Assembly: GCA_965205095.1 (NCBI GenBank)
Contig: OZ242040.1
Span: forward strand, 1,607,787 to 1,671,786
DNA from: Candidatus Multivorans sp.
Lineage (GTDB): Bacteria; Acidobacteriota; Thermoanaerobaculia; Multivoradales; Multivoraceae
Direction: 5' to 3'
DNA: 64,000 nt
A model generated the notes under the pieces. That model ran no database searches, was not told where the DNA came from, and saw nothing but the letters and a program-made list of their open reading frames with translations. The position numbers and the translations under genes were made by a program. Shown here in pieces: positions 34,868 through 55,149 of the stretch. Within the stretch, counting starts at the first letter, position 1. Every line of letters begins with the position of its first letter.

Positions 34868-36025
34868 GTGGCGCGCGTGCTCCGGCCCCAGCAGCGGCGG
34901 CGGCCGGCGCCGCCACCGCACGGGTCGTTGCGAGAAGGGACGAGGAGGTCGACGGACGTGGAAGGAATCAAGATCTGGCAGCTCGATGGATCGCGGGCCA
35001 TTCCTCTGGCCTCGGCCAACCGGCTGAAGTCCGAACAGATGCTCGAAGAGGCCCTGGTCGAGAACCCGCACCTGCTGATCGAAGGGTTGACCCTGGTCGG
35101 TCGGCAGACGCCTACAGAGGGCGGGCCGCTTGATCTCCTAGGAGTAGACCAGGACGGCAGGTTGGCAGTCTTCGAACTGAAGCGCGGCACACTGTCACGA
35201 GATGCGGTCGCTCAGGTGATCGACTATGCCTCTCACCTCGACGACATGGATCTCGAAGAGCTCGCCGGTCACATAGGCGCAGCGTCAGGTGCTCACGGCA
35301 TCGACAGAATCGAGAACTTCGAGGATTGGTACGGCCCGCGGTTCGGTGAGCTTGAGTCCCTCAAGCCGTTGCGCCTGTTTCTGGTTGGCCTCGGCGTGGA
35401 CGATAGGACGGAGCGGATGGTGAGGTTCCTCGCCAACAACAGCGCCATGGACATCTCCCTCCTGACCTTCCACGGGTTCGACCAAGGTGGAAAGAGCCTG
35501 CTGGCCAAGCAGGTGGAAGTGGAGCCAACGGACAATGCCCAACGGACAGTACGACGCAGGCGCAGGAGCCGGCAGGAACTCCAGCAGAGGTTCAACGAGA
35601 AGCTCAGTCGATCCGGTGTCCCGGAGTTGTTCCACGAGGTCAAGGGCGTGTTCGAGAAAGACTGGCCGCGAGCCCTGAAGAGGTCGAACTCCTACGGACT
35701 CGCCTTCAAGCTCCAGAGACCGACGCCGTCGGGGCGGTACTCCGTGCAGTACGCGCGGGTCGATCCCAACGAAGACGAAGTAGCCATGGTCTTCTTCCCG
35801 CGCGCCATCCGCCTGTCCAGGGAGGAGTTCAGGCCGCGAGTCGACGAAGTCCCGTACAAGACGTGGCCACCGGGTCGTGAAGCCCTGCCAGCGAACGAGG
35901 ACGAACAGCCGGAGATCCAGTTCCAACTGACGCCGGAAGCCTGGAACGACCACAAGGCGAGCCTGGCCGAACTTGCCCAAGCCGTCTACGAGGCTTGGGA
36001 GGAAGAGCGTGCTAGTGAGCCGTAG
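34868..36025 (+). CDS. PD-(D/E)xK nuclease-fold protein, paralog 2
   Basis: 385 aa, about 90% identical to 24916-26022. Confidence 0.6.
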   Translation: MARVLRPQQRRRPAPPPHGSLREGTRRSTDVEGIKIWQLDGSRAIPLASANRLKSEQMLEEALVENPHLLIEGLTLVGRQTPTEGGPLDLLGVDQDGRLAVFELKRGTLSRDAVAQVIDYASHLDDMDLEELAGHIGAASGAHGIDRIENFEDWYGPRFGELESLKPLRLFLVGLGVDDRTERMVRFLANNSAMDISLLTFHGFDQGGKSLLAKQVEVEPTDNAQRTVRRRRRSRQELQQRFNEKLSRSGVPELFHEVKGVFEKDWPRALKRSNSYGLAFKLQRPTPSGRYSVQYARVDPNEDEVAMVFFPRAIRLSREEFRPRVDEVPYKTWPPGREALPANEDEQPEIQFQLTPEAWNDHKASLAELAQAVYEAWEEERASEP

Positions 36026-36130
36026 GCGACGCCCCTACGCTCCGCGGCGACACGGGCAACACCGGGGACGATTCCAGCAGACCCGCAGCTACGACCCGCC
36101 AGACCCGACTAGCGCAGAGGGGAGCCGAGA

Positions 36131-37129
36131 ATGGTGAAGCTGGCCGCATGGACGATCGAGGAACAGCCCGAGAAGAAAGGCCCGCAGAAATGGGAGCCAC
36201 GGAGAATCGAGCCCTCCCAGATCGACCTGGAGAAACACCTCGAGGACTGGATCGTCAAGGATGCATCCCTCATCGGGCAAGGGCTGACACTGGTCGGCCG
36301 CCAAGTGACGATCGACGACGGTCGTCTCGATCTGCTGGCCATCGACTCGCACGACCGGTGGGTGGTGATCGAGGTCAAGCCCGGAGTTCTCCACTCCGGC
36401 GCACTGAACCAGGCGCTCTACTACGCCTCGTCACTCGCCCTTCTCGACACGGATGACGTCAGCAGGCTCCTGAAAGACGGACTTCGCCAGCTTGGGGACG
36501 AGGAGGCACTTTCAGCGAGAGTCAAGCAGCTTCTGGACGAGGAAGAGGAGCGAGAGATCGCCCTGTTGCTCGTCGGTGCCGGCGTCCACCCGGGCTTGGA
36601 GCGAATGAACGGCTTCCTCGGGCGCTTCGGTATTCCGGTCAGCGTTGTCAGCTTCGAGGTGTTCGAGTTGGATGAGGGCCCGAAGCTCCTGGTCCGCGAG
36701 GTGATCGACGAAGCCGTCGCGGTGCCGCGTCCGAAACGCCGCTACACCGTTGGGGCTATCCGGAACCTGGCCGTCAAGGCGGGCGTTGGAGAGCAGTTCG
36801 ATCGCTTCGTCCGCATCTCGGAAGAGGCCGGTCTGCCGGTGCAGGCGCAACAGGCATCTGTGAGAATCGCTCCGCCGGCAGACAAGAGGCGTTTTCTGAT
36901 GTACGCGACGCCGCGACCCGACCCGAACGGCGGAGCACTGGGTATCTGGGTGGGTCCCGAGAACTTCGCCGACTGGTTTCCTCCCATATGCGCCGAAGCG
37001 GCCACGGACGCGCTCGGCACCTACGACGACGGCGACTTCCTGGCCGGTGAGGAGCTCGCCAACCGGCTCGACGAGATAGAGAGCTTCCTGACGACGTACT
37101 TTCCGGAGCCAACTGCGGACAGCGACTAA
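36131..37129 (+). CDS. PD-(D/E)xK nuclease-fold protein, paralog 3 (divergent)
   Basis: GRLDLLAIDSHDRWVVIEVKPG ... ALNQALYYASSL. Confidence 0.55.
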   Translation: MVKLAAWTIEEQPEKKGPQKWEPRRIEPSQIDLEKHLEDWIVKDASLIGQGLTLVGRQVTIDDGRLDLLAIDSHDRWVVIEVKPGVLHSGALNQALYYASSLALLDTDDVSRLLKDGLRQLGDEEALSARVKQLLDEEEEREIALLLVGAGVHPGLERMNGFLGRFGIPVSVVSFEVFELDEGPKLLVREVIDEAVAVPRPKRRYTVGAIRNLAVKAGVGEQFDRFVRISEEAGLPVQAQQASVRIAPPADKRRFLMYATPRPDPNGGALGIWVGPENFADWFPPICAEAATDALGTYDDGDFLAGEELANRLDEIESFLTTYFPEPTADSD

Positions 37130-39855: not shown

Positions 39856-40358
39856 CGAGCCCCACCCAGCCGACACCAGCCACCCGCACGAACAGCCCGG
39901 AGGACCCCGTCATGGCGGACCACCAGAACGAACCGAACATCCACCTGACGCTCGAACGCGTGATCGACGCGCCGGTCCAGCGGGTCTACGCGGCATGGAC
40001 CGACCCGGAGTTGCTGAAGCAGTGGCTGGCGCCGGGGGATGCCGTCGCCTCGCGCGCGGTCGCCGACACAGTGGTCGGCGGGACGTTCCTCATCGAGATG
40101 CGCGGGACCGACGGGCAGCGCTGGCTCGCCCGCGGCGTGTACCGGGAAGTCGCGCCGCTACGCCGCCTGGTGCACACCTGGCGCTGGGAAGGCAGCGACA
40201 TCGAGACACTGGTCACCGCCGAGTTCGAACCTGAATCGGCCGATACGACGCGCCTCACGGTCACTCATGCCCGATTCGCCCAGGACGAGGCCCGCGACCA
40301 GCACGGGAGTAGCTGGGCGTCCTGTCTCGAGAAGCTCGGGGAGCTGTGCGCCGCATGA
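39852..40358 (+). CDS. SRPBCC / AHSA1-family protein
   Basis: Starts by ATGA overlap with arsR. Typical ArsR-AHSA1 pair. Confidence 0.7.
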   Translation: MTSPTQPTPATRTNSPEDPVMADHQNEPNIHLTLERVIDAPVQRVYAAWTDPELLKQWLAPGDAVASRAVADTVVGGTFLIEMRGTDGQRWLARGVYREVAPLRRLVHTWRWEGSDIETLVTAEFEPESADTTRLTVTHARFAQDEARDQHGSSWASCLEKLGELCAA

Positions 40359-41248
40359 ACAGGGTCGCGTCGACCGCCCGTCCCGATTGGGTTTCCGACG
40401 ACCTGTTCCCGTTCGAGAGCCGGTTTCTCGACCTCCCGCCCGATCACCGGATGCACTACATCGACGAAGGCGAGGGCGAACCGATCGTGTTCGTCCACGG
40501 CAACCCCGCATGGTCGTTCGAGTTCCGGCATCCGGTCCGGGAACTGCGGTCGGAGTTCCGCTGCGTCGCGCTCGACCACATCGGCTTCGGCCTCTCGTCA
40601 CGGAGCGCACGGCGCGAGGACCATCGTCCCCGGAGTCACGCGCAGCGCCTGGCCGCTCTGCTCGACCATCTCGACCTTCGCGACATCACCCTGTTCATGA
40701 ACGACTGGGGCGGGCCGATCGGCCTCGACTTCGCACGCAGGCACCCGGAGCGCGTCAAGCGTCTCGTCATCGCGAACACCTGGTGCTGGCCGGTCGGCGA
40801 CGACTTCCACTTCAGGTCGTTCAGCTTCCTGATGTCGAGCTGGATCGGCCAGTACCTGCTGCGGCACCACAACCTCTTCGTGAACGGAGTGATGCCGAGA
40901 GCGGTCGGCGACCGGAGCGTCCTGACGCCGGAGATCATGGCTCACTACCGCAGCGCACAGCCGTCGCCCGCGGCACGGGCCGCGAGCGCCGCGCTGCCGG
41001 GCTACATCGTGGGCGCGAGCGACTGGCTGCGCTCGATCTGGGAGGACCGCGCCGCCTTCGCGGACAAGCCGGCGCTTGTTCTCTGGGGGCTGAAGGACAT
41101 TGCGTTCCGGAGGAAGGAACTGGAGCGGTGGAAGTCGGCGCTTCGGGATGTCGAGGTTCGCGAGTTTGAGGATTGCGGGCACTTTGTGGCGGAGGAGGCG
41201 CCGGGGAGGGTGGTGGAGGGCCTTCGGAGGTTCATGAGGCGCTCGTAG
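40355..41248 (+). CDS. Alpha/beta hydrolase (haloalkane dehalogenase-like)
   Basis: HGNPAWSFEF, nucleophile DWGG, C-terminal CGHF. Confidence 0.75.
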   Translation: MNRVASTARPDWVSDDLFPFESRFLDLPPDHRMHYIDEGEGEPIVFVHGNPAWSFEFRHPVRELRSEFRCVALDHIGFGLSSRSARREDHRPRSHAQRLAALLDHLDLRDITLFMNDWGGPIGLDFARRHPERVKRLVIANTWCWPVGDDFHFRSFSFLMSSWIGQYLLRHHNLFVNGVMPRAVGDRSVLTPEIMAHYRSAQPSPAARAASAALPGYIVGASDWLRSIWEDRAAFADKPALVLWGLKDIAFRRKELERWKSALRDVEVREFEDCGHFVAEEAPGRVVEGLRRFMRRS

Positions 41249-41264
41249 CGGCCTGCCCGCATGA

Positions 41265-41580
41265 TCGCTGCCCGCTGCGGGGCCAGCATCGACGCCATCG
41301 ATCGCCCCTTCGACGACTTCAGGAACGACAAGGCTTACCTCAAGGCAGGCCACTTGCGCCGCCAGCCTCGGCGCCGTCGGCAAGTGGCTCATCCATCCCA
41401 ACCAGATTCCGATGGCCAACGACGGCCTCGCGCCGTCGCCCAGGGACGTCGAATAGGCGCAGAAGATGGTCGATCTCCACAACGAGTCCGTTGCGAAGGG
41501 GACTGGGGCGGGCGCGAAGGGGGACAGTTGGTGGGCGCGACGACGTTGCGGGTCATGAGCCAGTGTGAGGAGGGCGCGGG
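41265..41580 (+). pseudogene. Degenerate copy of the 3' third of the CitE-like lyase gene (matches 15125-15466) with frame-disrupting changes and an in-frame TAG
   Basis: Aligned DNA: RMIAA...AIDGPFGDFRNDKAYLK ... QKMVDL(Y/H)NESVAKG ... up to the stop. Confidence 0.8.
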
Positions 41581-42080
41581 CTGCTGGGAGGTTGTAGGCC
41601 CGACGCGCAGCCCCGACCACGGCGAGGCGACCACCGATGTCGCGCCCTTCGCGCGTCACCCAGCGCTGCGCCGCACGCGACCACAGCGGCGGCCGGTCCT
41701 ATGGCAGCGAGTGGATCTGGCCCCTCGATCAACTGGTGCTCCTCCTCGCGACATCACGGGTATCTCCACCAGCCGCCGCCGTTCAACAGGCCGGTTCCGA
41801 GCGGAGACCTCACAGCGACTCAGCCTCGGGTATCGGGTGTCTACCGTAGTTCCGGCTCGATCAGTGGAGGTACGGGGCCAGGACCGCCTGTCGGTGCTTG
41901 AGGAGGACTGCCTGCACCTTTCTGGGTACGCTCCGCCGGCCTCGCACTACTGTCGCGATGCCGCGAACGGTACTAGTCTTGGCGACGGAGGCGCGACCAT
42001 GAACGAACTCTACGAAGAACGACAGCCTGGGTGGATCGCAGGTGGCGCACCCGGGAACGGCAGGTCGAGAGGCTAGGACG

Positions 42081-42983
42081 ATGAAGGTGAGGCGCGACGA
42101 GAACGGCATTCAGCTCTTCGACCGAGTAAGCGGACTCAACATTCTCGTCGATGAAGTCTCGGTGCCGGTACGGGCGCGCCACTTCGCGCCACGGTTCGTC
42201 TCGATTGCGCTGACGAATGCATGCGATCTGAACTGCCATTTCTGCTACGCGCCGAAAGATCCCGCGCGACTCGACCTCAAGTCCGTAGTCGCCTGGGCCG
42301 TGGAGTTGGACGGCGGCGGCTGCCTCGGGCTCGGTTTCGGAGGTGGTGAGCCTACGTTGCACCCGGACTTCCCGGCAATCTGCCGTCGCGTCGCCGAGGA
42401 GACCAGCCTAGCGGTGTCGTTCACGACGCACGGCCACCGCATAACCGAGCGGCTCGCCAAAGAGCTAAGGGGGGCCGTCCATTTCGTACGAATCTCACTC
42501 GATGGAGTCGGCGCCACCTACGAGAGAATCCGAGGCCGGTCCTTTGAAGCTTTCCTCCACAAACTAGACGTCGTCCGCACGATCGCTCCGTTCGGTGTCA
42601 ACTACGTCGTCAACGCTGACACCATCGAAGGTCTGGGCGCCGCGGCACGATTAGCCTTCGACCGAGGGGCCCTCGAACTGCTGTTACTGCCCGAAAAGCC
42701 GGTCAACGGCAAGGGCGGCATTGACCCCACCACTTCTCAAGCGCTCTCGTGCTGGATTGAGCGCAACCACCACTACCGGCTCGCAATATCCGATACTGCG
42801 GCACCAGACGGCCTTCCGTTAGCTGATCCCTTCCGCGGAGGAAGTCCTCTCTCCGCCTTCGCCCACATTGACGCGACAGGGCGGCTCCGTGCCTCTTCCT
42901 CTTCCAGGCTCGGCTCACCCATTCAGTCTTCCCTCAGACTTGCACTGTCCGCCGTCCGCGCCAAGCTAGGAGAGCCAACATGA
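42081..42983 (+). CDS. Radical SAM protein of about 300 aa (CxxxCxxC, no SPASM cluster)
   Basis: ALTNACDLNCHFCYAP and GGGEPTLHP motifs. Start taken at MKVRRDENG. Confidence 0.75.
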   Translation: MKVRRDENGIQLFDRVSGLNILVDEVSVPVRARHFAPRFVSIALTNACDLNCHFCYAPKDPARLDLKSVVAWAVELDGGGCLGLGFGGGEPTLHPDFPAICRRVAEETSLAVSFTTHGHRITERLAKELRGAVHFVRISLDGVGATYERIRGRSFEAFLHKLDVVRTIAPFGVNYVVNADTIEGLGAAARLAFDRGALELLLLPEKPVNGKGGIDPTTSQALSCWIERNHHYRLAISDTAAPDGLPLADPFRGGSPLSAFAHIDATGRLRASSSSRLGSPIQSSLRLALSAVRAKLGEPT

Positions 42984-43384
42984 AAGTATGGGTAGGTTAC
43001 GGTTCTGAGCACTCTTCCAGGCTCAATCTGATCGGCCGTTTCAAGACACCCGAGGCCGCGGAGGAGGTTCGACGACAACTGGAGCAGCTCTGCGAACTCG
43101 TCGCGAACAGCTACGACCACGATAGGTTTGACGAGAACCCGATGGCCCTCTACCTCGACAGGGAACTATGCGAGACGTTAGCCGGCCTCGGTTGCCGCCA
43201 CTTTTCCCCAGAAGACATCGCGAGTCTCATCGGCGAGCACCAGATAGACCGCCGCGGCAACGAACTCCGAATCTGGTCCAACGAATTCAGCGTTAGTGGT
43301 TTCGTCAAGTTCCTGATAGAGAGACCGGTCCGTGTCGAAGTCTTCTCGGAGCACCACTTTCCCGAGGCACAATCCTCACAGTAG
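42980..43384 (+). CDS. Hypothetical 134-aa protein, translationally coupled to the radical SAM gene
   Basis: ATGA overlap. No recognisable domain. Confidence 0.5.
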   Translation: MKVWVGYGSEHSSRLNLIGRFKTPEAAEEVRRQLEQLCELVANSYDHDRFDENPMALYLDRELCETLAGLGCRHFSPEDIASLIGEHQIDRRGNELRIWSNEFSVSGFVKFLIERPVRVEVFSEHHFPEAQSSQ

Positions 43385-43407
43385 CTACGCAGTCTGAGAG
43401 AGTTCAG

Positions 43408-46400
43408 TTGGATTGGGAACAATTCACACGGCTACCCGGGTCAGAGTCCTGGAACTGGGAGCGCCTCTGCGGAGCAGTGGTGCGGCGGAGCTTCGGGGCC
43501 CTAGGGAGACTCCGCTACGTTTCCCAGCAACCGGGAGTAGAGTTTCACTTGGAGTTGGAGCGCCCTTCAAACATCTTGGGCCAGCCGGGCCGTTGGTGGG
43601 GCTGGCAGTGCCGATGGCACAAGATCTCCCCCGGTCGACCACTCGGAAAGACACGCCAGAAGAAGATCGAATCGTCGATTCGCACAGCCGAGAAGTACGT
43701 TCCTAACATGACCGATTGGGTCCTCTGGACGAGAAGGCCCCTCACTCCGACGGATCAAAAGTGGTTCTTCGCCATCCCATCTAGACTGCGGTTGCACCTG
43801 TGGACCGAGGCTGATCTGGACGCTCACCTCGTTGGCGAAGCTGAGATGCTCCGGCGCACTTACTTCGGAGATCTCGTCCTTACACCGGGAGATCTTTGCA
43901 ACCTACGGGATCAGTCCATTGCTCCAATCCGTGACCGGTGGCTGACCCACGTCCACACGGAAGTCGATGCCGAGAGCGAACTTCGGAAACTTCTTGCGGA
44001 AGCAGACTACTGGAACGAGATGGCAGGACTTGTCGCCGAGCTTGACTCTTCAACCCAGGAGTTGGCGAAGATTCTCCCTGAAGTTGAGGAAGAGTTCCAG
44101 GGCCAAGTTCGATTACTCGCGGACGACCTCCGTGGCTTGAGTGACGCCACCGGAGAGACATCCCGCGCATTACAGAGCGCGGCCTTGGCCACTGCAACCG
44201 AGAGGACCGCCACGGAGCCCTCCTTTAGGCTCAGCCGTGCCCAGGGGACTCGGCTCGCTCGGTCCCTCAGGAAGCGACGCTCTCAGTTCTGCTTCCCCGT
44301 ACAAGCCGCTCTTGCCCGCCGCCGCGACGCGGAGATCCTCCTGGCGCAGTTCCGAGGGTACTTGTCCACCTCGGCCGTCGCCGTGGTCGGTCCGGCAGGA
44401 TGTGGCAAAACGCACCTAGCCGCCGAGCTGACGACCTCCCGCGGTAGTCGACCGTGCGGCATCTACCTCCAAGCTTGGCCTCTGACAAAACGGGGCACGG
44501 CCAAAGAACTGATGGACCAGGTCGACGGCGTTGGCGCAGAGTCCTTCGTCGAGCTACTTGAAGCCGTGGACGCGGCCGGGTCACGGGCGGGCACGCGAGT
44601 ACCGGTGGTCATTGACGGACTGAACGAATCGGAGGATCCGGTCAGCTGGAAGAGCGAACTGGCAAGCCTGGTTCCCGTGTTGAACCGACTACCACACGTT
44701 CTCCTCATTGTGACCGTGCGGCCGTCTGTGGCGAGTATGGCGGTTCCAGAGGGTCTCCGCAGGCTGGAACTCCCCGGCTTTGATCACGCAACGCCCGCAG
44801 CCGTCGATCGGTACTTCCAAGCGTACCGGATCGACCCCGGCTCGGTGCCTCTTTCATACGGACCATTCCAAGAGCCACTTTTCCTCCGAATCTTCTGCGA
44901 AGCGACAAATCCCGGCAAGGAGGTCACGGTGAGGCTAGATGAGGTCCCCGCCTCCCTCATAGGTGCGTTTGGCCGTTTCCGAAGGACCGTCGCGGAGAGA
45001 ATCGCGGATCGGCCAGGTGGTGTGCGCCGCTACGTTCAGGATGTTCTAAGAGCTCTGGACGCCATCTCGCTGTCCCTCTGGACTGCGAAGCGCCGAGCCA
45101 TGTCCTTCGACGAGCTCCGCAAGCTCATCGGCGACGACGCCCAGGATTGGACCAAGAGCCTTGCCAGAGAACTACTGGACGAAGGCATCCTTGGCGCAGA
45201 GCCATATGACGGCCGCCACGGCCGAGTCGTCATCCTGTTTGATCCCTTCGCTGGTTTTCTTGTCGCGGACGCGCTGATCCGCGAAAGAGGGCGGGAGGAC
45301 TTCACTAAGTGGATCGGCGACGACCACACGAAGACTCTCCTCGGCACTCACCCGGAAGAGGCACACCCTCTCGCATCGGACATCCGAAGAGCCTTCGTGG
45401 GCCTAGTTCCCAGGAGATTCCGGACACAGTTCTGGCAGCTCGTAGACGGCGAGGTCCGGAGGGAGGCGACCCTCGCCGCTGCTGAGCTTGAGGCTACTCT
45501 TCTAGACCACGCAACCGTTCAGGAGATCGGTCGGCTTGCTTTGCGGCCGGACCCTGACCTCGTCCCGAGTCGGTTGGGCCGAGGCGATCTCTTTGACCGA
45601 TTCCGAGAGCTACGAGAGGCTGTTGGGCATCCCCTCAACGCCGAGTTCTTGGATCACCTACTTGGTCCCCAATCGGTCGCGGATCGCGACTTGCGGTGGT
45701 CCGAGTGGGTCCGAAGACGTGAGCACGACATCCTCGCCGACATCGACCTCTTGACCAAGCGTTGGCGATGCACGGAGGACCGCACACGCCGAGATGACCT
45801 CCGTGCCCTTTGGCTAAAGTGGCTGCTTACGAGTACTCATCGCGACCTTAGAGACCTCGCCACACGCGCCCTCTACTGGTATGGCCGAGGAGAACCGGAA
45901 GCGTTGTTTCGCCTCGCGATCTCCAGTATGGGCACGAGCGATCCGTACATCAAAGAACGCCTTCTTGCAGCCTCGTTCGGTGTCGTCATGGCTGGACCCG
46001 GAGGGAGGCACGAGTTCGGGCGGGAACTACACGACTTCTTGGATCAGCTATGGAATGCGCTCTCTGCAGAGGACGCTGCGCACGCTACCGACCACTGGCT
46101 GATTCGTCACTGCGTAGAGGGAATTGTCGCGGTGGCCCGCCTCTACTACACCTCGGCACTCGGCAAGTGGTCGACCGAAGGGGAGTTTCGGCGCCCTGGC
46201 AGGCCGGAACCGATCGCACGCAAAGACCCTCGGAACGCGGAGCGAGAACTAGTCTATGGCATGGACTTCAGAAACTACACGGTCGGCAGGTTACTCCGAA
46301 ACCGGGACAACTATGACTTCAAGGACGAAGAGTACGAGGAAGTGTCGTCATGGATTCGAGCGAGGGTCTGGGAACTGGGTTGGCGAGCCGAACGCTTCAA

Positions 46401-47433
46401 GGCAGCGGAAGAGAGCATCGCTCAGTACCGTCGATATCGTTTCCATCATCGCGGGAAGGTGGAATCGTACCAGAAGAAGTACGGCTGGATCGGGTTCTTC
46501 GAGGCCGCGGGTAGGCTCGTGGAAGAGGGACGGTCGCCGTTCATGGACGGTGAAACCCAGCTATCCGACGTCGACATCGACCCGTCCTTCCCGTCAGTAC
46601 CCAGAGCTGCTCCTGCATGTATCCCGGACCTACTCTCTGAGGACTTCGAGGATTCCGAGAGCTGGGTCCTGTCTGGCACTGTGGATGTACCGGATCGCAT
46701 GCTGCGGCATCGGGTGCTTGAGGACTCCCACGGGCCGTGGGTCGCACTCTCCGCATCCTTACGTCAACGGGATCTCGAAACGAGACGGGAGGTGTTTGCC
46801 GTCCTATGGAGCATGCTTGTTCGCCGGGGGGACGAGCAGAGACTCAGGCGAGTTCTCCGGTCACGGCGTCGGCCAGGCAACATCTGGCAGCTACATCCTC
46901 CTGAGAGCTACTACGTTTTCGCCGGAGAGATGCCATGGAGTTTATGCGCCCGGTTCGGTGAAGGCGCGGACAATCTGCGGCAGCTGTACGCCCGAACCGC
47001 CAGGGGAGAGGACGGGCAGGAGGTTCCGGTCGAGTTGGCGGCCAACTACTATGCATGGGAGTCGTACCACTCCGTGACCAATGACGCTGGAGGATTCCCT
47101 GTCCCAGCGGTCACCTTCGCCGAGGCTTTTGATCTTCGGGTCGTGCCAGCCAGCCTGGACTGGTGCGACGCACAAGGCCGGAGAGCTTCGATGACGTTCG
47201 GGCCACCGGCTAGGTTCGACGAAAGCGGACACCTCCTGTATCTCCGGGAGGATCTCATTCGGAAGTACTGCAACCAGCACGACTACGAGCTGATCTGGAT
47301 GGTTTGGGGCGAACGGACACCGTGGTTCGCCGACCGACCAAGAGACCTGCCAGCTTGGCTCCTTCAGGCGTACGAGGACTACACGTACGGCTGGCGCCGC
47401 ATTGCATCGCTGGACGAGGTCACTGCCGTCTAG
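43408..47433 (+). CDS. Large NACHT-type STAND NTPase (1341 aa) with an N-terminal domain of about 300 aa of unknown function
   Basis: Walker A VVGPAGCGKTHLAAE, Walker B VVIDGLNESED, then the hhhTxR motif (LLIVTVRPS). Long helical C-terminal region. Confidence 0.7.
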   Translation: MDWEQFTRLPGSESWNWERLCGAVVRRSFGALGRLRYVSQQPGVEFHLELERPSNILGQPGRWWGWQCRWHKISPGRPLGKTRQKKIESSIRTAEKYVPNMTDWVLWTRRPLTPTDQKWFFAIPSRLRLHLWTEADLDAHLVGEAEMLRRTYFGDLVLTPGDLCNLRDQSIAPIRDRWLTHVHTEVDAESELRKLLAEADYWNEMAGLVAELDSSTQELAKILPEVEEEFQGQVRLLADDLRGLSDATGETSRALQSAALATATERTATEPSFRLSRAQGTRLARSLRKRRSQFCFPVQAALARRRDAEILLAQFRGYLSTSAVAVVGPAGCGKTHLAAELTTSRGSRPCGIYLQAWPLTKRGTAKELMDQVDGVGAESFVELLEAVDAAGSRAGTRVPVVIDGLNESEDPVSWKSELASLVPVLNRLPHVLLIVTVRPSVASMAVPEGLRRLELPGFDHATPAAVDRYFQAYRIDPGSVPLSYGPFQEPLFLRIFCEATNPGKEVTVRLDEVPASLIGAFGRFRRTVAERIADRPGGVRRYVQDVLRALDAISLSLWTAKRRAMSFDELRKLIGDDAQDWTKSLARELLDEGILGAEPYDGRHGRVVILFDPFAGFLVADALIRERGREDFTKWIGDDHTKTLLGTHPEEAHPLASDIRRAFVGLVPRRFRTQFWQLVDGEVRREATLAAAELEATLLDHATVQEIGRLALRPDPDLVPSRLGRGDLFDRFRELREAVGHPLNAEFLDHLLGPQSVADRDLRWSEWVRRREHDILADIDLLTKRWRCTEDRTRRDDLRALWLKWLLTSTHRDLRDLATRALYWYGRGEPEALFRLAISSMGTSDPYIKERLLAASFGVVMAGPGGRHEFGRELHDFLDQLWNALSAEDAAHATDHWLIRHCVEGIVAVARLYYTSALGKWSTEGEFRRPGRPEPIARKDPRNAERELVYGMDFRNYTVGRLLRNRDNYDFKDEEYEEVSSWIRARVWELGWRAERFKAAEESIAQYRRYRFHHRGKVESYQKKYGWIGFFEAAGRLVEEGRSPFMDGETQLSDVDIDPSFPSVPRAAPACIPDLLSEDFEDSESWVLSGTVDVPDRMLRHRVLEDSHGPWVALSASLRQRDLETRREVFAVLWSMLVRRGDEQRLRRVLRSRRRPGNIWQLHPPESYYVFAGEMPWSLCARFGEGADNLRQLYARTARGEDGQEVPVELAANYYAWESYHSVTNDAGGFPVPAVTFAEAFDLRVVPASLDWCDAQGRRASMTFGPPARFDESGHLLYLREDLIRKYCNQHDYELIWMVWGERTPWFADRPRDLPAWLLQAYEDYTYGWRRIASLDEVTAV

Positions 47434-47983
47434 CTCGGCTACCAGGGCATCGTCGGCCCGCTTTTCCCCTCCCTAGGTCCTCTGAACCCGGCCGCCGGCC
47501 CGCGCGGATTGTCACGCGATGCTCGATCTGCGCCACCAGATTCTCTGACAGCGCATGCTCCAGGAAAGGAACATCCCCGACTCCTTCGTAACGCCCCAGG
47601 CCGATTCTCAGGGACGGCGGCGACTTCGTGCGACAGCTCCAGGTCGGCCGAAATGCGACAAGTCGATGCCACCCACTGGTGGTCCAGTAGGTCCGTAAGG
47701 TGTGGGGGTGCCGTGGTGCTCAACCCCGGAACGGGTCGGGGATCACATCGGACTCGTTGCTACTCCCCTCGATGCGTCCAATCGAACAAGCGGACTCTGA
47801 GTCGGTAGTCAACCCGCTCTCTCGGCCTCCGTCTGAAGCGACCGGATGCCATCGATCACGCCTGCAACACGGTTGACTTGAGCCTGTCGCCACCGCTACA
47901 GTGCACGACCTCCAACTTGGGGCCGGACTCGCCAAGGCCGCCGATAGGCCGCCTCCACACGTGAGCCCCACGACAAGAGAGAC

Positions 47984-48880
47984 TTGATCTCCGTGTCGCA
48001 GTCACAAGGCACCGCGCCCGCACCTAAACCGCAAGCTCCCCCGGTACGCGGCAACGCTAGTCCTCAAGATGCCGCGGTCAAGCTCCACTTCGCGCACGAG
48101 CTGGTCAACCGGCTTTGGCAAAACGCTCCCGACATTCAGCCGGATTGCGTCGCGGACTACGTGGCGATTCAGGCTTGGGCGTGGATTCCCTCTGGCTGTC
48201 AGCTCGTCGAACAGTCCTTCAAGGCGCTGATCGCCGCCCGCCACGGCACGCCACTCACGGAACGGAAGAAAGGCCACCATCTGGACGAACTGTTCGCCAA
48301 GTTGGAGAACAGCGACAAGCAGGCGATCTCGCACGCCTTCGAGTCCTTCGTCAGTCTTCACAACCACATACCAATCCCAACCGTAGGCGACTTCTTCGAC
48401 TCCGTAGGTCGCGGCTACACCCGATGGAGATACATGCTCCTCGACGGAGCGGAGGGTATCCCGCCCAACCACTTTGGTGCGCTCCTAGAAATCGCCAATG
48501 CCACGATTTCTCTGCTCAAGTCCTGTCTCGCTGACAAACCACCGAGTTTCCCGACGGTAATGCAGCGGATCCAGTTCAACATCGATGGTGACATCGGGCA
48601 TGCGTGCAACCGCCTCAACCGAGGCGACGAGGAGCTGGATGAACTCGAACATCGCTACCAGCGTCTACGACGAGAGATCCTCGGCAACATGAGGACCCGT
48701 CTCGCCATTGCCGCCCACTTGGAGAACACCGACAACTCAAGGTTGGGACCACAGCCACCCCCGAACCCTTGGAGCCGGAACTTGCCCGAACTCACCCCTC
48801 CGATCGAGGTGTTGATCGACCTCTGGAAGCGGTCGAGCGATCGCAAGAACCTCGTAGCCTACTTCCGCAAGCCACTGTGA
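47984..48880 (+). CDS. Hypothetical protein
   Basis: ORF of 298 aa. Confidence 0.4.
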   Translation: MISVSQSQGTAPAPKPQAPPVRGNASPQDAAVKLHFAHELVNRLWQNAPDIQPDCVADYVAIQAWAWIPSGCQLVEQSFKALIAARHGTPLTERKKGHHLDELFAKLENSDKQAISHAFESFVSLHNHIPIPTVGDFFDSVGRGYTRWRYMLLDGAEGIPPNHFGALLEIANATISLLKSCLADKPPSFPTVMQRIQFNIDGDIGHACNRLNRGDEELDELEHRYQRLRREILGNMRTRLAIAAHLENTDNSRLGPQPPPNPWSRNLPELTPPIEVLIDLWKRSSDRKNLVAYFRKPL

Positions 48881-49019
48881 TCCTCACCGGATGGGTCGCG
48901 CAGACGCCGACCACAGGTGACGGTCGCGTGGTCACCTTCCTCTATTCCGGCACGGGCGCCGAACTCCGCACCTGGGCCGGGAGCCACGAAAACACATGCT
49001 CCGGCGGGGGCCAAAGGCC

Positions 49020-50456
49020 CTATGCGGAGGCTCCTTTGGCCCGGTTGTGCTTTCGGCATAGTACTTGTGCATTGCCAATCACGGTTGGGCCTCCCTTCGA
49101 GTGCGGCACTACATGATCCGCTTCGTACTCGGACCAAGGAACTCTCGCCTCGTCAATCGGTAATCCGAGCCGCGAACACTCCTGGCACACCCCGTCAACC
49201 GCTCGGTAGATCGCAATGCGATCGCTCTCGCTGAAGCTCCTCCTCTCATCCTTCGTCAGGATCTCGACGTCTTCGGCGCTCGCGAACTCAAAGAAGATCT
49301 GCCGAATGACTCGATCTCGTATCTTGATTTCGCGCCCGCTTTGCTGTCGGTGAGAAGTGAACACCTGTATATCTGAGTCATCTTCCCGGTGATCACGCCG
49401 TCGCTGGTCGAACGAGATCGTGAATGCCCGGAATAGCCGCTGCTCCCGCTCGGCGAACACGTAGTGCTTTCGCAGGTGCCGGAGTAGGAGGTAAAGCGAG
49501 ACAATCACGTACTCCGCTTCTAGCTCCCGCATCCCATGCCCGTCCGTCACATCCTCCCGAAACACTCCATAGAACGCCCTCATATTGGCAAGCACCGATC
49601 TTGCGGGCGACGTCCCTTCGTAGGAGTAGTTGCCGATGCCTTCGGGATGCTGGCCCTTCTCGATGAACTCACTGACGTTCTTGTTACTGATGTCCGCAGG
49701 GCCGTCCTCCTCCTCTAGGATCAGCAGTCGAGTCAGTATTGCCAAGTGCTGCATCCGCGTGTTGGCCCGCGTGATCGTACGGAAGAAGTCGTGCGTGTGG
49801 GGATTGTCTTCGATGGGTTCGTAGGAGTCGTAGTCAAAGCTGATGTCGTCCGCGTACTTCACGACGAAGTTCCGGGGAAGGCTCGATAGTCGGGCGTGGG
49901 CGACCTCCATATAGTTGAGGGTCTCGCCTTGCTGAAGACGCCAGAAGATCTCCGCGGCTGTCTGCTGGTGCTGAGGGTTTCGGGGGTCGTCAATCCCCTT
50001 TACCGTGTCCACCTCGTAGCGGAGGCTCTTGTCGACGAACTGTCGCACCTTGACCGGGAGGTCCCTGTACTTTAGCCCGGGAAGCGAGCTGTCCAGGTCC
50101 GCAAGGGACTGCGGCAACGCCAGTTCATTCTTGTAGAATGCTTGGGCAACGCGTATGCGCTGCTGACCATCGATGACCTCGTTCTTGTTGTCCTTCTCGG
50201 CCAGCTTGATTTCGCGAAGCACGATTTTCGGCACATAATACCGACGGAACAGACTGTCGAGTAATGCCTGTTGTTTCTGCCGTGACCATACGTTCTTGCG
50301 TTGGTATGGTGGTCGAACGACATAGTCTTCTGGGTACTTGTAGAAGTCCTCCAGCTTGCTGTGGCCCGGGATCACGTCATAGGTTGTCGGCGGACTGAAC
50401 AATGCTCTCTCCTGCTGTCGGTTCTTGAGTCGGGCCAGATTGGACTGGGACCCCAC
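49020..50456 (-). CDS. DUF262 (ParB/GmrSD-like, DGQQR motif) protein with a C-terminal HNH endonuclease. Likely Type IV / modification-dependent restriction (GmrSD- or SspE-like).
   Basis: VIDGQQRIRV near the N-terminus. C-terminal EADHVVPHSKGG...NAQVLCRKHNRAKG is HNH. Confidence 0.7.
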   Translation of the reverse strand: MGSQSNLARLKNRQQERALFSPPTTYDVIPGHSKLEDFYKYPEDYVVRPPYQRKNVWSRQKQQALLDSLFRRYYVPKIVLREIKLAEKDNKNEVIDGQQRIRVAQAFYKNELALPQSLADLDSSLPGLKYRDLPVKVRQFVDKSLRYEVDTVKGIDDPRNPQHQQTAAEIFWRLQQGETLNYMEVAHARLSSLPRNFVVKYADDISFDYDSYEPIEDNPHTHDFFRTITRANTRMQHLAILTRLLILEEEDGPADISNKNVSEFIEKGQHPEGIGNYSYEGTSPARSVLANMRAFYGVFREDVTDGHGMRELEAEYVIVSLYLLLRHLRKHYVFAEREQRLFRAFTISFDQRRRDHREDDSDIQVFTSHRQQSGREIKIRDRVIRQIFFEFASAEDVEILTKDERRSFSESDRIAIYRAVDGVCQECSRLGLPIDEARVPWSEYEADHVVPHSKGGPTVIGNAQVLCRKHNRAKGASA

Positions 50457-50510
50457 GGAGTCGGCACTACGCCGCCCCTCGATTCGGCGACCTGCGCTCT
50501 TCGGCTCGAA

Positions 50511-53180
50511 TCACCGTAGAGTGTGTCGCTTCCATTTCGAGACGATCTCCTCGACGCCTTTGTTCAGTTCCCTCAGCTCGTCCGCCAAGGCCGTGTTGCT
50601 CTCGGTCGCTCGCCTTTCGGCGCCGGCCACTCGCGTCACGGTCTCCTTCTGCGCCTCCAGCGACGGAAGGAACACGCTCAGGCTCTCGAAGTCACCCTCT
50701 TGCGTACGTCTACGATTGGAATGTCCCGTGGTGATTGCTCGCACTGCTCGTTGAAAGTACGCTGTCCGTAGGAGCAGTTGCAAATAGCGGGCGTCCACCT
50801 GCTCGCGGCTCTCCTCGCGCAGATAGTAGACTGGGAACTCGCTCGTGACTATCGCGCCATCAAACTCCTGCGGAACAACTCCAACACAACCCTTCCAAAG
50901 GTCGATGCGTGACAGCAGAATCCCGCCCGCGTGGATCCGGTTCCACACTTGGCTCTCCTTGAAGTAGGCCCCCAACCAACTTGGTGGATTCCGTCCCTTT
51001 CCCGCTTCACGAGGCGTGAACTGTCCTTCCTGGCTCAACGTGACCGTCAGGAACTCGGTATCCGGCTCGCTGTTAGGAACTACGGGGTCGGCCCTTTGCT
51101 CAAGAAGCTCCCCGACCTTGTACGTCCTTGTGCCGCCGGGAGTGTCCTCCACCTCTTCGGCGATCTTGAAGATGTGGTACTTCGGGTCGATCCTCGAACT
51201 AGGATGTGCGCCATACAGGTCACTGGCGGGAACCGCCAAGCACGTGGGATAGGCACTACCAGAGTAGCCCTCTCGGTCTCTCTCGAACAGTCGGAATTGA
51301 CCAAGGATCGTCGACGCCGGTGCGGCCACCGCTCCGCCGTCCTGGGCATAGAGGTCATTGTCGATGTCCGGCGAACCCGCTGGGGTGAATCCAATAGCGT
51401 CGGCTTCCGCGAGAAACACGTGGTAGTCGTTCTCCGCGAGCGCTCGGCCGACCGCCCCTCGCTTCGTGCTGCCGGCTTCCTCCAAAGAAGTCGTCATCCG
51501 ACGTTCTTCCTCCTCCGAGAACCGCTTCAGGAACAGCAGACTCGTCTTGTTCTGCGCCCCACTCTTGCGAAACGCGAAGTCAGGAAGGGACACGATAGCG
51601 AGAACCCGGCATTTCTTGAAGATGAATCTCCGAGCCGCTGGACAGAGACTTCGTTCCCCCGGATTGTTGAGAAGACCATCTGGGACGACCATTCCAAGAC
51701 GACCGCCGGGGGCGAGCCACTTGATGGAACGCTCCAAGACAGCGATCTCGGACGCCACTTGGCTTCCGGTAGGGATCTCGAAATTGTCCAGGCTGTTACC
51801 ACCCAAATGGTCTCGATCACCTTCCTTCACGCTGTCGCCGAAGGGTGGGTTTCCGACGATCAAACTGAAGGGACTCGTCGAGGGATCGAGAAGCGGATTC
51901 ATGAAGTTGCTATCCAAGCAGCTCCGGTCAACTTCAATGTTCGTATGACCATCCCTGTGCAGAATGAGGTTTGTCTGACAGATTCGTCCCAGTTTCTCGA
52001 AGATCTCGATTCCGTAGAGTCCCTTATTGGCGAAGTCGAACTTCCGGCGCTCCTGCCCCTCCTGACCAGCGTATGCGACGTCAATATGCCGCCATACCTG
52101 AATCAGTGTTTCGAGAAGGAACCCCCCGCTCCCAGCTGTGGGGTCGAGCACTCGGTCCGTGTCGGTTGGCCTAAGCAACGCACACACGAAGCGGACAATC
52201 TCGCGACGCGTAAAGTACTGACCGAGTTCTCCTCGGAAGACCGAACCGAAGAAGCCTTCGAAGGCACTGCCCAGCGCATCGACGTCCATCCGAGTAAACG
52301 CCACCGCTTCGATAGTTCGCACTACCTGGGCGATCTTGTCGTCCGACACATCGAGAGGTTCAGAGAACACCGTGGGATCTTCGCCCTGCGCTTCCGCGTA
52401 GAGAGTGCGAATCCGGTTGCCCGTGCTGACGTCCTCTTCGCGCCGGCCTACTTGGAACCGACGGGGCTGGCCCGTGGCAGTGTGCCTCTCATCGTGAATC
52501 TTAGCGAAGAGCAACTTAGACCACTCGTCGAAGGCGGTTAGAGGATCGCGTTTGCCACCGGCCCAGATGAGGGCATGGGCGTTCCGCACACGGTTCTCGA
52601 CATCCCGGCTTGGAAGAGGCCGGATGTCCCGTTCTTCACCAGCCACGAACGGAAACTGTGACACTTGGCCGTAACACTTCGGAAGGTCCTCGCGAGTACC
52701 AAGATGGTTCTCGTCACGCTCTTCCGGTGGATAGTCCGCAACCGCATAGAGTGCTGAATCAGAACCGCTGTCGATCAACGCTAGTGACGTCGTACGTAGG
52801 GAGTTAGCGTTGCCGAACGCCTGTTCGACCGCTTGGAGAAACGCGCGCTCGCTGACGCCAGGCCTCTTCGTCTCCGCCACGAGGTAAGGCGTGTCACAAC
52901 TGCTGTCGGTGTAGATGACGATGTCTGCGTAGTCGGAGGGCGTTCGACGGGGGACTTGCACCTCGACCTTTATCGCAGTGGCCGGATACTCACGCTCGAG
53001 AATCAGCCAAGCGTACAGGCCAGCGCGGACCTTTTCCTCCGGGTCCGTGAAGTCCTGGTCTGTGCCGTTTGCGCACTTGTAGAGAACGCGATCACCGTGA
53101 AACTCTAGGTAGCCGCGCTTCTCAGCCTCCGCGATGAGGCCGCTCCAACTAGCCGGAACGGCGGCTTTCGATCTAGTCAT
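50511..53180 (-). CDS. MmeI-like Type IIL (IIG) single-chain restriction-modification enzyme: N-terminal PD-(D/E)xK endonuclease, gamma-class N6-adenine methyltransferase, C-terminal target-recognition domain
   Basis: 889 aa. DIVIY...YLVAETKRPG (D...ExK), MTase motif I LDPTAGSGGFL, motif IV IVGNPPFG, HsdS-like C-terminus. Confidence 0.7.
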   Translation of the reverse strand: MTRSKAAVPASWSGLIAEAEKRGYLEFHGDRVLYKCANGTDQDFTDPEEKVRAGLYAWLILEREYPATAIKVEVQVPRRTPSDYADIVIYTDSSCDTPYLVAETKRPGVSERAFLQAVEQAFGNANSLRTTSLALIDSGSDSALYAVADYPPEERDENHLGTREDLPKCYGQVSQFPFVAGEERDIRPLPSRDVENRVRNAHALIWAGGKRDPLTAFDEWSKLLFAKIHDERHTATGQPRRFQVGRREEDVSTGNRIRTLYAEAQGEDPTVFSEPLDVSDDKIAQVVRTIEAVAFTRMDVDALGSAFEGFFGSVFRGELGQYFTRREIVRFVCALLRPTDTDRVLDPTAGSGGFLLETLIQVWRHIDVAYAGQEGQERRKFDFANKGLYGIEIFEKLGRICQTNLILHRDGHTNIEVDRSCLDSNFMNPLLDPSTSPFSLIVGNPPFGDSVKEGDRDHLGGNSLDNFEIPTGSQVASEIAVLERSIKWLAPGGRLGMVVPDGLLNNPGERSLCPAARRFIFKKCRVLAIVSLPDFAFRKSGAQNKTSLLFLKRFSEEEERRMTTSLEEAGSTKRGAVGRALAENDYHVFLAEADAIGFTPAGSPDIDNDLYAQDGGAVAAPASTILGQFRLFERDREGYSGSAYPTCLAVPASDLYGAHPSSRIDPKYHIFKIAEEVEDTPGGTRTYKVGELLEQRADPVVPNSEPDTEFLTVTLSQEGQFTPREAGKGRNPPSWLGAYFKESQVWNRIHAGGILLSRIDLWKGCVGVVPQEFDGAIVTSEFPVYYLREESREQVDARYLQLLLRTAYFQRAVRAITTGHSNRRRTQEGDFESLSVFLPSLEAQKETVTRVAGAERRATESNTALADELRELNKGVEEIVSKWKRHTLR

Positions 53181-53638
53181 GTAACGGCCCGCCTCTCCGA
53201 ACGGAGTCGGCGAGACTCAATGTCGAGCCACCTCCCGCCCCTCCTTGGAGCGTGATCGAGTCGTCGATGTTCCTCAAGCGCTCGGGCTGTCGAACGTTGC
53301 GATTCTGGGTTGCTCGTAGCGTACGTGGGCAAAGGTGCCGACGACGTTGGGTTGACGTTGCTCCACAAGGACTTCGATGTACGGACGTGAGCTCGGAGGT
53401 CTCCGCAGCGTCAGTGACGGACACAGGTGCGGTCCACCTTGCCCCGGTACTTTGGTCATCCCTGCCTACCTTTACCTCGGTTCGAGACGGCATTACTATC
53501 TGGCGGAAAAGCGGTCTGTCAAGACCTCGCCCCCACTGGCACGGAGTGGGCCTAGCGTGCGTTCCGGGCTTCCTACCCGACACCGCCGACTTGTCGGGAC
53601 GTTCTAGCCGCCGACTTCACCCTGGTGCCAGCTAAGGA

Positions 53639-54370
53639 CTACCAAGGCATAGTCCGCCCGCTGTACTCCCTCCCCACCTCCGCCGAATCCTCCCGCCGCC
53701 CCGCACCAATCATCACGCCACGATCAATCTGCCCCGCCACATTCCCCTGCAACACATTGTCCAGGAAGTACATCCCCCGCTCTTTCGTCAGCTCCAGCAC
53801 CATGTCCCCCGCAGCAACCACCTCCGGCGGCAACGGCGGATCGGCCCGCCCTTCCAGATAGCCGTACGACAGCCCCAGGTCCCGCGGCCCGTGTTCGGCG
53901 AAGGCCAGGCCCGGCACCGACAGCGTCTCCGCCGCCCTGTCCAGCGCCTCCTGGTCCTCCAGCTTGACGCCGAGCATGATCTCGCCCTCGGGGTTGAGCG
54001 GCCAGACGTCGGCCTTCTGCAGGTACTCCGGGACGCTCAGCCCCCAGACCCAGGCTGCGTAGGTGTGGCTGCCCCAGCCGCGGAGGCCGACGCCCAGGGT
54101 GTCGGTGGCCTGCTTGTGGATCGGGTAGCGGGCGGCCTGGACGAAGCGCTTGACTCCCTCCGGGTCGCGGGCGCGGGCGAGGTGAACGCCGTGGACGCCC
54201 TGGGCGAGGGCCTGCTGGACCATCCAGCCGCCGGCCGTGACGGTCGCTTCGTCGAGGCCGAGCAGGGGCAGGGAAACGATGACGGTCGGCGTGCGGTGGC
54301 CGCTCGGGGTGGGGCCGGCGTCGACGAGGCCGCGCATGAACTCGTGGAGCGCCGCGAAGTCGAGCGCCAC
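53639..54370 (-). pseudogene. Truncated duplicate of the C-terminal 243 codons of the HpcH/HpaI aldolase domain of gene 56048-58708
   Basis: More than 95% identical at protein level to the C-terminus of the fusion protein. Lacks the first roughly 45 aldolase residues (including the DYIIYNVEH region). Confidence 0.7.
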
Positions 54371-54378
54371 GTGCTCAG

Positions 54379-55149
54379 CTAGCGCAACGGAGGGAAGTTG
54401 ATGGTCACGATCCGGTACACGGCTACAGGCTCCCCGTGGAGCGTCGCGGGCTTGAACTTGTACCGCCTCACGGCCCTCGCAGCCTCCAAACCGAGTCCGT
54501 AGCCGGGGTCCTGGAGAATGACCGGGTGCTCCACGCTTCCGCGTTCATCGATGACGTATCCGATCACCGCAGCGCCGTAGACGCCAGCCTCAAGCGCCCA
54601 CGCCGTACGCCTTGGCCCAAGGGAATCGGGGTTCTTCCGCACGGGCGGTTTCATGCCTTCCACCGGCTTGCCGCCAACGTTGAGGGTGTGGATCTCCCGG
54701 TCAGGATTCGCCAGGCGTACTGCCAGAAGATCGACATCGACGACGAGTCCGAGCGCGAACGCATAGTGCTCGGCGGCGTTGCTGCTTCTCTGGTCGACAT
54801 GGCGACGCGCGGACGAAACGGCCACGTCGTGCAGTCCCTTCTCCTTTGCCGCCATGGCGTGGATAGCCCAGAAGAGCCGCGGCAGTTCCAGATCGGGATG
54901 GAGCGCCTCGAGCTCGACGATGTCGTCCAGGAAGCTGAGCGCCTCGGGCAACTGTTCCAGTTCGGCGAGGCGCGCCGCTTCCGCCCACAGGCGCTCAACG
55001 TCAGCCTCCGGGGTCGGCTCTTCCTGCGCCAGGAGGGGCGCCACGGTGATCAGGAGAAGAACGGGGATGTACGAACGGCGGAGGGTCGCGGACAGGTCGC
55101 GCTGTCCTTGCCTGGCGCCGGTAGCCATCACTGCCACTACCAAGGGCAT
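54379..55149 (-). CDS. TonB C-terminal-domain protein (energy transducer TonB family)
   Basis: C-terminus AAVIGYVIDERGSVEHPVILQDPGYGLGLEAARAVRRYKFKP. Start at MPLVVAV. Confidence 0.6.
   Translation of the reverse strand: MPLVVAVMATGARQGQRDLSATLRRSYIPVLLLITVAPLLAQEEPTPEADVERLWAEAARLAELEQLPEALSFLDDIVELEALHPDLELPRLFWAIHAMAAKEKGLHDVAVSSARRHVDQRSSNAAEHYAFALGLVVDVDLLAVRLANPDREIHTLNVGGKPVEGMKPPVRKNPDSLGPRRTAWALEAGVYGAAVIGYVIDERGSVEHPVILQDPGYGLGLEAARAVRRYKFKPATLHGEPVAVYRIVTINFPPLR

Follow-up and report, generated by a model that had tools for sequence, protein, structure and literature searches.

The DNA analysed here, hereafter the window, is a stretch of 64,000 nucleotides of Candidatus Multivorans sp. 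(contig OZ242040.1). It contains three genes that are read in one direction on the + strand and encode a radical S-adenosylmethionine (SAM) protein, a protein of 134 amino acids (aa) and a STAND nucleoside triphosphatase (NTPase) of 1341 aa. We refer to them as avap1, avap2 and avs2, the names used for the KpAvs2 operon of Klebsiella pneumoniae. Their coordinates in the window are as follows.

42081 to 42983, + strand: avap1, radical SAM protein (Avap1), 300 aa, PF04055
42980 to 43384, + strand: avap2, DUF6375 protein (Avap2), 134 aa
43408 to 47433, + strand: avs2, STAND NTPase (Avs2), 1341 aa

The first-pass annotation, made by a model from the letters of the sequence, described three co-directional genes with an ATGA overlap between the first two, and both features were found in the open reading frame (ORF) calls. 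The ATG of avap2 overlaps the TGA of avap1, and GGAGAG lies upstream of avap2. The full extent of the avap1 ORF is 42042 to 42983; the start supported by homologues is the ATG at 42081, which gives the 300-aa protein. The start codon of avs2 is TTG, with a GAGAGAG Shine-Dalgarno-like run. The avs2 gene was correctly described as closely spaced from avap2, with a measured spacer after the avap2 stop codon of 23 nt instead of the 24 bp given.

An operon with these three components was described and tested by Béchon et al. 2024 (Nat Commun 15:9860; PMC11564622), contrary to the annotation, which knew of no described Avs system with a radical SAM partner. In that study Avap1, a radical SAM protein (PF04055), and Avap2, a DUF6375 protein (PF19902), accompany KpAvs2 of K. 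pneumoniae S_15PV, and about 5% of Avs2 genes are found with Avap2, most of these also with Avap1 (PMC11564622). The KpAvs2 operon guards Escherichia coli by abortive infection with phage-triggered DNA degradation (PMC11564622). Defence was lost in the nuclease mutant K71A, in the Walker A mutant K337A and upon deletion of the C-terminal domain, and K71A also abolished the toxicity induced by Ksap (PMC11564622). In KpAvs2, the helical bundle that links nuclease to NTPase is bound by Avap2, which is required against SECphi18 (PMC11564622). Triggers of KpAvs2 are the large terminase or small proteins of phages, among them Ksap1 and Ksap2. Preprints of 2026 that use KpAvs2 add nothing further on the accessory proteins.

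The link between the window and KpAvs2 rests on the criteria stated in the paper and on one genome named there. The paper looks for avap2 within two genes of avs2, and in the window avap2 is immediately upstream of avs2. The named genome is that of Nitrospirae bacterium JdFR-85 (our locus L041), which is included in Fig. 1B of PMC11564622 and has the trio in the same order; identity between the window and this locus is 50% for Avap1, 35% for Avap2 and 34-44% for Avs2. The window locus resembles the KpAvs2 operon in its three components, their order and the placement in a defence island, and also in an Avs2 of about 1350 aa that is composed of a Mrr-like nuclease, a helical bundle, a STAND NTPase as well as a long domain at the C-terminal end. 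It differs in that it comes from a high-GC genome and is a diverged orthologue, with QCR instead of QxK in the nuclease and a TTG start. By analogy with the published operon, the trio is very probably a KpAvs2-type AVAST type 2 (Avs2) anti-phage operon, avap1-avap2-avs2. The reading as a defence system was thus right and the claim of novelty was wrong: the locus is a divergent member of the KpAvs2/Avap1/Avap2 kind, and it is no stand-alone discovery because the radical SAM-DUF6375-Avs2 operon had appeared in print, with its experimental validation, in 2024. What is new here is an arginine at the column of the catalytic lysine, a predicted flexible tail of Avap2 and the existence of Avap1-Avap2 pairs without Avs2.

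The assignment of the large protein is supported by six PADLOC Avs2 models. The best of them, PDLC02164, matched residues 2-911 with an E value of 1.7e-108, and the five others matched at 1e-33 to 1e-58. The solved Avs2 structure 9o4e matched residues 325-861 (E 3.9e-29). The NACHT label of the first-pass annotation has some basis, as a Pfam NACHT match exists, but it is borderline (27.0 bits where the cutoff is 26.7; E 4.7e-6), so that a place among the bNACHT proteins would be marginal, and AAA_22 and AAA_16 match as well. Because the matches to the Avs2 models are much stronger and longer, we filed the protein under Avs2; by these matches it belongs to the Avs2 family as a diverged member and is not a generic NACHT protein. 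Four segments were distinguished in Avs2.

43408 to 43887, + strand: residues 1-160, PD-(D/E)xK Mrr-like nuclease (AlphaFold2 model, Foldseek)
43888 to 44307, + strand: residues 161-300, helical bundle joining nuclease to NTPase (AlphaFold2 model)
44308 to 45267, + strand: residues 301-620, STAND NTPase module (Pfam, 9o4e, motifs)
45268 to 47433, + strand: residues 621-1341 and stop codon, C-terminal helical sensor region, presumed by analogy to recognise a phage protein

The N-terminal 300 aa, which had been called uncharacterised, were modelled with AlphaFold2 on an alignment of 43 sequences. The model had a predicted local distance difference test score (pLDDT) of 91.5, and in it residues 1-160 form an alpha-beta-beta-beta-alpha-beta core. 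In Foldseek the top match of the N-terminal domain was EcAvs4 (8dgf, E 9.5e-5, probability 1.0), followed by MspJI, Card1/Cdn1 and NucS. The region is therefore described by the model and by Foldseek as a Mrr-like PD-(D/E)xK nuclease with a helical bundle. A profile of the same 300 aa searched against PDB sequences gave only compositional coiled-coil matches to the helical bundle, and a Pfam scan of the N-terminal region, member by member, gave no consistent match. The helical bundle is the least conserved segment of Avs2, with a mean column conservation of 0.45. In the NTPase module, Walker A reads G328-P-A-G-C-G-K334-T and Walker B reads VVID403GLNE, and both are at least 95% conserved in 61 relatives. 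The CxxxCxxC and GGGEP motifs of the radical SAM protein and the Walker A motif had been correctly recognised before; the annotated DGLDE is DGLNE in the sequence. Sensing by the C-terminal region may be expected from the C-terminal deletion and the pull-downs made with KpAvs2.

Among the other known Avs systems, EcAvs2 and the solitary AVAST type 2 proteins (Gao et al. 2020/2022; 9o4e) share homology with the window protein in the STAND NTPase and in the helical part next to it, and the presumed logic, oligomerisation once a phage protein is bound, would be the same in the window. They differ in being single-gene systems, and the N-terminal effector of EcAvs2 is of another type; the window protein would need accessory proteins and is below the cutoff of NF041813, the narrow, EcAvs2-like equivalog of Avs2 in NCBIfam, although it matches the broad Avs2 family. 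EcAvs4 and SeAvs3 resemble the window protein in the fusion of a PD-(D/E)xK Mrr-like nuclease to a STAND NTPase; they belong to other Avs families with another sensor (portal or terminase), have no accessory genes and show a nuclease identity of about 18%.

To establish how widely the trio occurs, one genome per GTDB species was scanned. This gave 308 loci with Avap1 relatives, of which the best 80 were examined together with 22 metagenome loci. The order radical SAM-DUF6375-Avs2 was found in about 75 of the 80 loci and in essentially every locus with enough flank, so the three-gene synteny that the first-pass annotation suggested looking for in other genomes is real and far beyond chance. One apparent exception (L053) is not a true Avs2-less locus, as its Avs2 ORF runs off the contig end. 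All four segments of the window Avs2 have homology in the Avs2 proteins of the related loci. The hosts belong to Actinomycetota, Chloroflexota, Pseudomonadota, Planctomycetota, Acidobacteriota, Bacillota (Paenibacillus) and Bacteroidota, and two metagenome relatives have the same trio. The full trio was also found on plasmids of Synechococcus elongatus PCC 11801 (L111) and Vibrio parahaemolyticus (pVb677-tet, L112) and on one predicted viral contig (L088, IMGVR_UViG_3300042278_000591). Conjugative MOBH plasmids of Vibrio carry it beside the resistance genes qnrVC6 and dfrA. In the plasmid records the three genes are labelled as radical SAM, DUF6375 family and ATP-binding or hypothetical protein, with no annotation as a defence system; recognition of the trio in such records, including those of conjugative Vibrio resistance plasmids, would improve the annotation of defence genes. 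With its approximately 300 relatives, the locus allows broad comparisons that could help to find the biochemical functions of the two partner proteins, Avap1 and Avap2.

These data bear on whether the radical SAM and DUF6375 genes have a joint biosynthetic or housekeeping role and are merely adjacent to an independent Avs2. Such pairs do occur at a distance without Avs2, one of them (L086) by sugar transferases and another (L097) by housekeeping genes, and about 95% of Avs2 genes are solitary (PMC11564622). Against chance adjacency, the trio is invariant across phyla in the clade of the window, its genes overlap or are tightly spaced, it moves as a unit on plasmids, and Avap2 binds KpAvs2 and is needed for defence (PMC11564622). 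We consider mere adjacency hardly credible. The first-pass view of an antiviral STAND operon, with the radical SAM and small proteins as true partners of the NTPase, was borne out.

In the family, Avs2 genes seem to have been disrupted repeatedly. Several members have the gene split by inserts of about 1.3-1.7 kb, which lie between the parts for nuclease and NTPase in L010, L027 and L074 and ahead of the C-terminal part in L060. Two Vibrio plasmids, NZ_CP068629.1 and NZ_CP034301.1, are also among these members, and an IS3 transposase is annotated under the match there. L083 looks frameshifted.

The putative active site of the nuclease in the window Avs2 is formed by E18, E45, Q67-x-R69 and D103. 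Residues E18, Q41, G43, E45, F46, G65, W66, C68 and D103 do not vary among the 61 full-length family members that were aligned. Three forms of the third nuclease motif occur: Proteobacteria and the published Nitrospirae homologue have QCK, most Actinomycetes have SCK, and the window has QCR, with Q67-C68-R69 encoded at 43606-43614. R69 aligns by position to K71 of KpAvs2. The QCR form is present in 21 of the 61 members, the window and 20 others, which come from several phyla and have intact genes.

An arginine at the lysine column of QxK, together with the loss of KpAvs2 defence in K71A, could mean that the window copy is decayed or rewired, with an inactive nuclease, so that the locus would be non-functional or would use some other output. 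The distribution of QxR in intact members from many phyla, the invariance of E18, E45 and D103 and the three intact ORFs in the window are not what decay predicts. This points to a working variant that is kept by purifying selection, and arginine retains the positive charge. Decay or rewiring of this copy is accordingly judged unlikely. We read QCR as a probable working variant because it is present across phyla in intact genes with the other site residues conserved. The recurrence of this lysine-to-arginine nuclease variant across phyla makes it directly testable.

Avap1 matched PF04055 with an E value of 5.8e-18 (66 bits, cutoff 29.5). At least 1520 homologues were found, mostly of about 300 aa and sharing the start at ATG 42081. 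The cysteines C48, C52 and C55 of the CxxxCxxC motif and the GGGEP SAM motif (G87-P91) are invariant across the family, the three cysteines are the only invariant ones, and Avap1 has a single CxxxCxxC cluster. No SPASM or twitch domain was found in the 300 aa of Avap1, and the profile matches end at about position 204; the earlier description of a radical SAM protein without a SPASM domain agrees with the lack of auxiliary invariant cysteines. When the Avap1 family profile was compared with solved structures, the best match was SkfB (6efn, 2.5e-15), followed by PqqE (2.5e-10) and the viperins (about 1e-6). SkfB and PqqE, the closest solved relatives, resemble Avap1 also in having a small partner encoded alongside. 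They differ from it in that Avap1 has no SPASM/twitch domain and no N-terminal domain of the size of a RiPP recognition element (RiPP, ribosomally synthesised and post-translationally modified peptide), and its partner is a folded protein of 134 aa and not a short precursor. Avap1 was considered as a SPASM-type RiPP maturase and ruled out, as it lacks auxiliary cysteines and has a folded protein as its partner. A search for Avap1 in a phage collection gave no match.

The first-pass annotation proposed, besides a possible modification of the small protein, that the locus is an undescribed defence system in which the radical SAM protein makes a viperin-like antiviral nucleotide under the control of a NACHT sensor. 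The top PADLOC and NCBIfam matches of Avap1 are indeed to pVip/viperin models, and the gene stands in a defence-island context. Prokaryotic viperins (pVip) are radical SAM proteins of defence contexts with a similar CxxxCxxC core. However, the viperin matches, among them that to PADLOC pVip (65 bits), cover the generic radical SAM core only (residues 53-178), and the match to viperin NF038283 reaches 53.7 bits against a cutoff of 180, with only residues 54-172 aligned, whereas SkfB and PqqE score better. Avap1 as a viperin or pVip was ruled out by score and coverage, and it differs from pVip also in that it is always accompanied by DUF6375. The KpAvs2 operon yielded no detectable pVip-type nucleotides, and the model of Avap1 has no pocket for a nucleoside triphosphate (NTP) (PMC11564622). 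Furthermore, the system was published in 2024, and Avs2 already has a nuclease effector of its own. A nucleotide product of Avap1 is thus very unlikely.

Avap2 matched PF19902 (DUF6375) over its full length with an E value of 4.2e-30 (105.5 bits, cutoff 27.5). A word-index search for homologues gave 3 matches, and an exhaustive search was used instead; among 1.84 billion proteins it found 154 cluster representatives of DUF6375, nearly all stand-alone proteins of 120-145 aa. One candidate fusion of DUF6375 to a nuclease (P0189) was rejected and judged to be a frameshifted or mis-called Avs2. The AlphaFold2 monomer model of Avap2 has a ferredoxin-like fold. Two motifs characterise the family, an invariant N-terminal tail MK(I/V)WxxYGSEHS that begins at Met1 and a C-terminal VEVYSxHDYP. 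Residues 1-14 (42980-43021) are the most conserved part of DUF6375 and, with a pLDDT of about 55, the only unstructured part of low confidence in the model, so the tail is predicted to be flexible. The fact that the tail is unstructured in the model and equally conserved in pairs without Avs2 suggests that it is a docking or substrate tail for Avap1.

At least 11 Avap1-Avap2 pairs have no Avs2 gene in the available flanks (L084, L086, L090, L091, L094, L097, L098, L104, L106, L107 and L109), and L095 and L102 also are pairs without Avs2 in the available flanks; where the locus is 20 kb long, the pair stands at about 10 kb. In the loci examined, the distant DUF6375 genes are always preceded by an Avap1-like radical SAM gene. 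A neighbour-joining tree of Avap1 placed the Avs2-linked copies in one clade and the orphans in deeper, separate clades. The orphans keep the terminal motifs of Avap2, the cluster and SAM motifs of Avap1 and also R4, G9, G18, D24 and E25 of Avap1; these motifs therefore serve the partnership of Avap1 with Avap2 and not the binding of Avs2. Pairs of this type are absent from PMC11564622, where the search went outward from Avs2, and are new here. They are a lead and not a census.

The surroundings of the orphan pairs vary. In L095 a PD-T4-6 Ser/Thr kinase gene is directly downstream of the pair (E 1e-93), L098 is near a GAF-cyclase and a type IIG restriction-modification (RM) system, L102 is near a stand-alone Mrr_cat protein, and L109 is near PDC-S11. 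L090 and L094 are near GNAT/FemAB genes and L091 near an HD protein; the pair of L086 adjoins sugar-transferase genes, and that of L097 lies among housekeeping genes. A search of L084 against E. coli genomes gave no match. Tandem Avap2 (DUF6375) copies follow a single Avap1 in two orphan loci, L089 (1537-2284) and L090 (9604-10372).

By analogy with KpAvs2, the window operon would act as follows. The C-terminal domain of Avs2 would bind a phage protein, NTP-dependent oligomerisation of the STAND module would then activate the N-terminal Mrr-like nuclease, and the activated nuclease would degrade DNA, so that the infection aborts. Avap2 may be a constitutive cofactor on the helical bundle between nuclease and NTPase that is needed for full activity, and Avap1 may broaden the range of phages that are countered. 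The substrate of Avap1 would most likely be the N-terminal tail of Avap2 or Avs2 rather than a nucleotide.

With modest confidence, we regard Avap1-Avap2 as an older, self-contained module of an enzyme and its partner that was captured by one Avs2 clade, and the substrate of Avap1 as a protein. This is supported by the orphan pairs, the deeper clades of Avap1, the motifs kept in the orphans and the SkfB/PqqE-like core, and by two published observations: no deletion of avap2 was obtained in a background with avap1 and avs2, and the products of pVip were not detected (PMC11564622). It is possible, as a tentative extension, that the ancient pair carries out radical SAM chemistry on a protein, most likely the Avap2 tail MKxWxxYGSEHS or the STAND protein, and serves as a licensing switch or as a second effector. 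If the protein-substrate module is true, radical SAM chemistry would have a new, non-nucleotide role in immunity, and the orphan pairs near PD-T4-6 kinases, Mrr and RM genes would be stand-alone defences or plug-in accessories. The pairs without Avs2 that have the same motifs shift the question from how the pair helps Avs2 to the activity of the pair itself.

The same observations may also be explained by an autonomous module of the toxin/antidote or second-effector kind, in which a latently toxic Avap1 would be restrained by Avap2 and the activation of Avs2 would release or redirect it. The inability to delete avap2 alongside avap1 and avs2 speaks for it. The need for Avap1 against T2 but not SECphi18 (PMC11564622), the tandem Avap2 copies in L089 and L090 and the frequent location of orphan pairs beside defence genes (the PD-T4-6 kinase, the type IIG RM system, the Mrr protein and PDC-S11) point the same way. 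On the other hand, expression of Avap1 by itself was possible and had no phenotype (PMC11564622), and the loss of both defence and Ksap toxicity in K71A points to the nuclease as the principal effector against the phages that were tested. The location of L097 among housekeeping genes also does not suit a toxic module. This explanation agrees with much of the evidence, and we regard it as conceivable but doubtful; if true, it would provide nuclease-independent killing, which may be useful against modified-DNA phages such as T2.

Several points weigh against the KpAvs2-type reading and the roles proposed for its parts. The evidence on the locus itself is computational. The match to NF041813 scores 246.8 bits against a cutoff of 1000, with residues 322-861 aligned. 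As R69 stands at the position of K71 in KpAvs2, where K71A kills defence, the nuclease activity of this copy is not guaranteed. In KpAvs2, Avap1 was dispensable for one phage, SECphi18 (PMC11564622), and the idea of a protein substrate for Avap1 draws on weak similarity of the core and on conservation. Most of the orphan pairs are on short metagenome contigs and form a small sample, in which a partner gene could be located farther off.

The surroundings of the trio in the window agree with the restriction and defence context that had been noted for it. G+C content is 0.58-0.63 over 42-53 kb against 0.67-0.72 in the flanks, which suggests that the region is an acquired island. A search for island-border repeats in 40000-54500 found only short, chance-level ones. 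The other features of the region are as follows.

34868 to 37129: pair of neighbouring paralogues of 385 and 332 aa, PDC-S11 (PADLOC candidate), NucS_C nuclease domain
41249 to 42080, + strand: upstream spacer of about 830 bp from the alpha/beta-hydrolase gene to avap1 (gene calls), presumed promoter region
47984 to 48880, + strand: 298-aa protein, no Pfam or PADLOC match
49020 to 50456, - strand: GmrSD_N-HNH protein, NsnA-like
50511 to 53180, - strand: HSDR_N_2/N6-methylase/specificity fusion, 889 aa
54379 to 55983: 534-aa protein with TonB_C domain

The two paralogues at 34868-37129 matched PDC-S11 in PADLOC with E values of 7.5e-35 and 1.5e-28, and together with the GmrSD_N-HNH gene and the N6-methyltransferase/specificity fusion they make up the defence neighbourhood of the trio. 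The TonB_C domain of the 534-aa protein suggests that the high-GC genome belongs to a diderm host and not to an actinomycete. The closest relative on a long contig (L001, 5941-8812; 65% Avap1 identity) adjoins BilABCD, a helix-turn-helix/ImmA-like pair and two reverse-transcriptase genes.

Upstream of avap1, the promoter region of 500 bp in the first-pass annotation is actually a gap of 830 bp after the alpha/beta-hydrolase gene, which ends at 41248. No sigma-70-like consensus was found in this gap, a scan of 41200-48000 for promoters and terminators gave nothing exceeding the expectation from shuffled sequences, and an Rfam scan of the whole window, spacer included, gave no match. At 41261-41456 the spacer appears to contain the C-terminal fragment of a lyase-like protein, ending in GKWLIHPNQIPMANDGLAPSPRDVE and a stop codon, which is split over two frames by a frameshift. 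Its Pfam match, to C-C_Bond_Lyase, is weak (E 0.22), and the fragment is probably the remnant of a gene left when the island was inserted.

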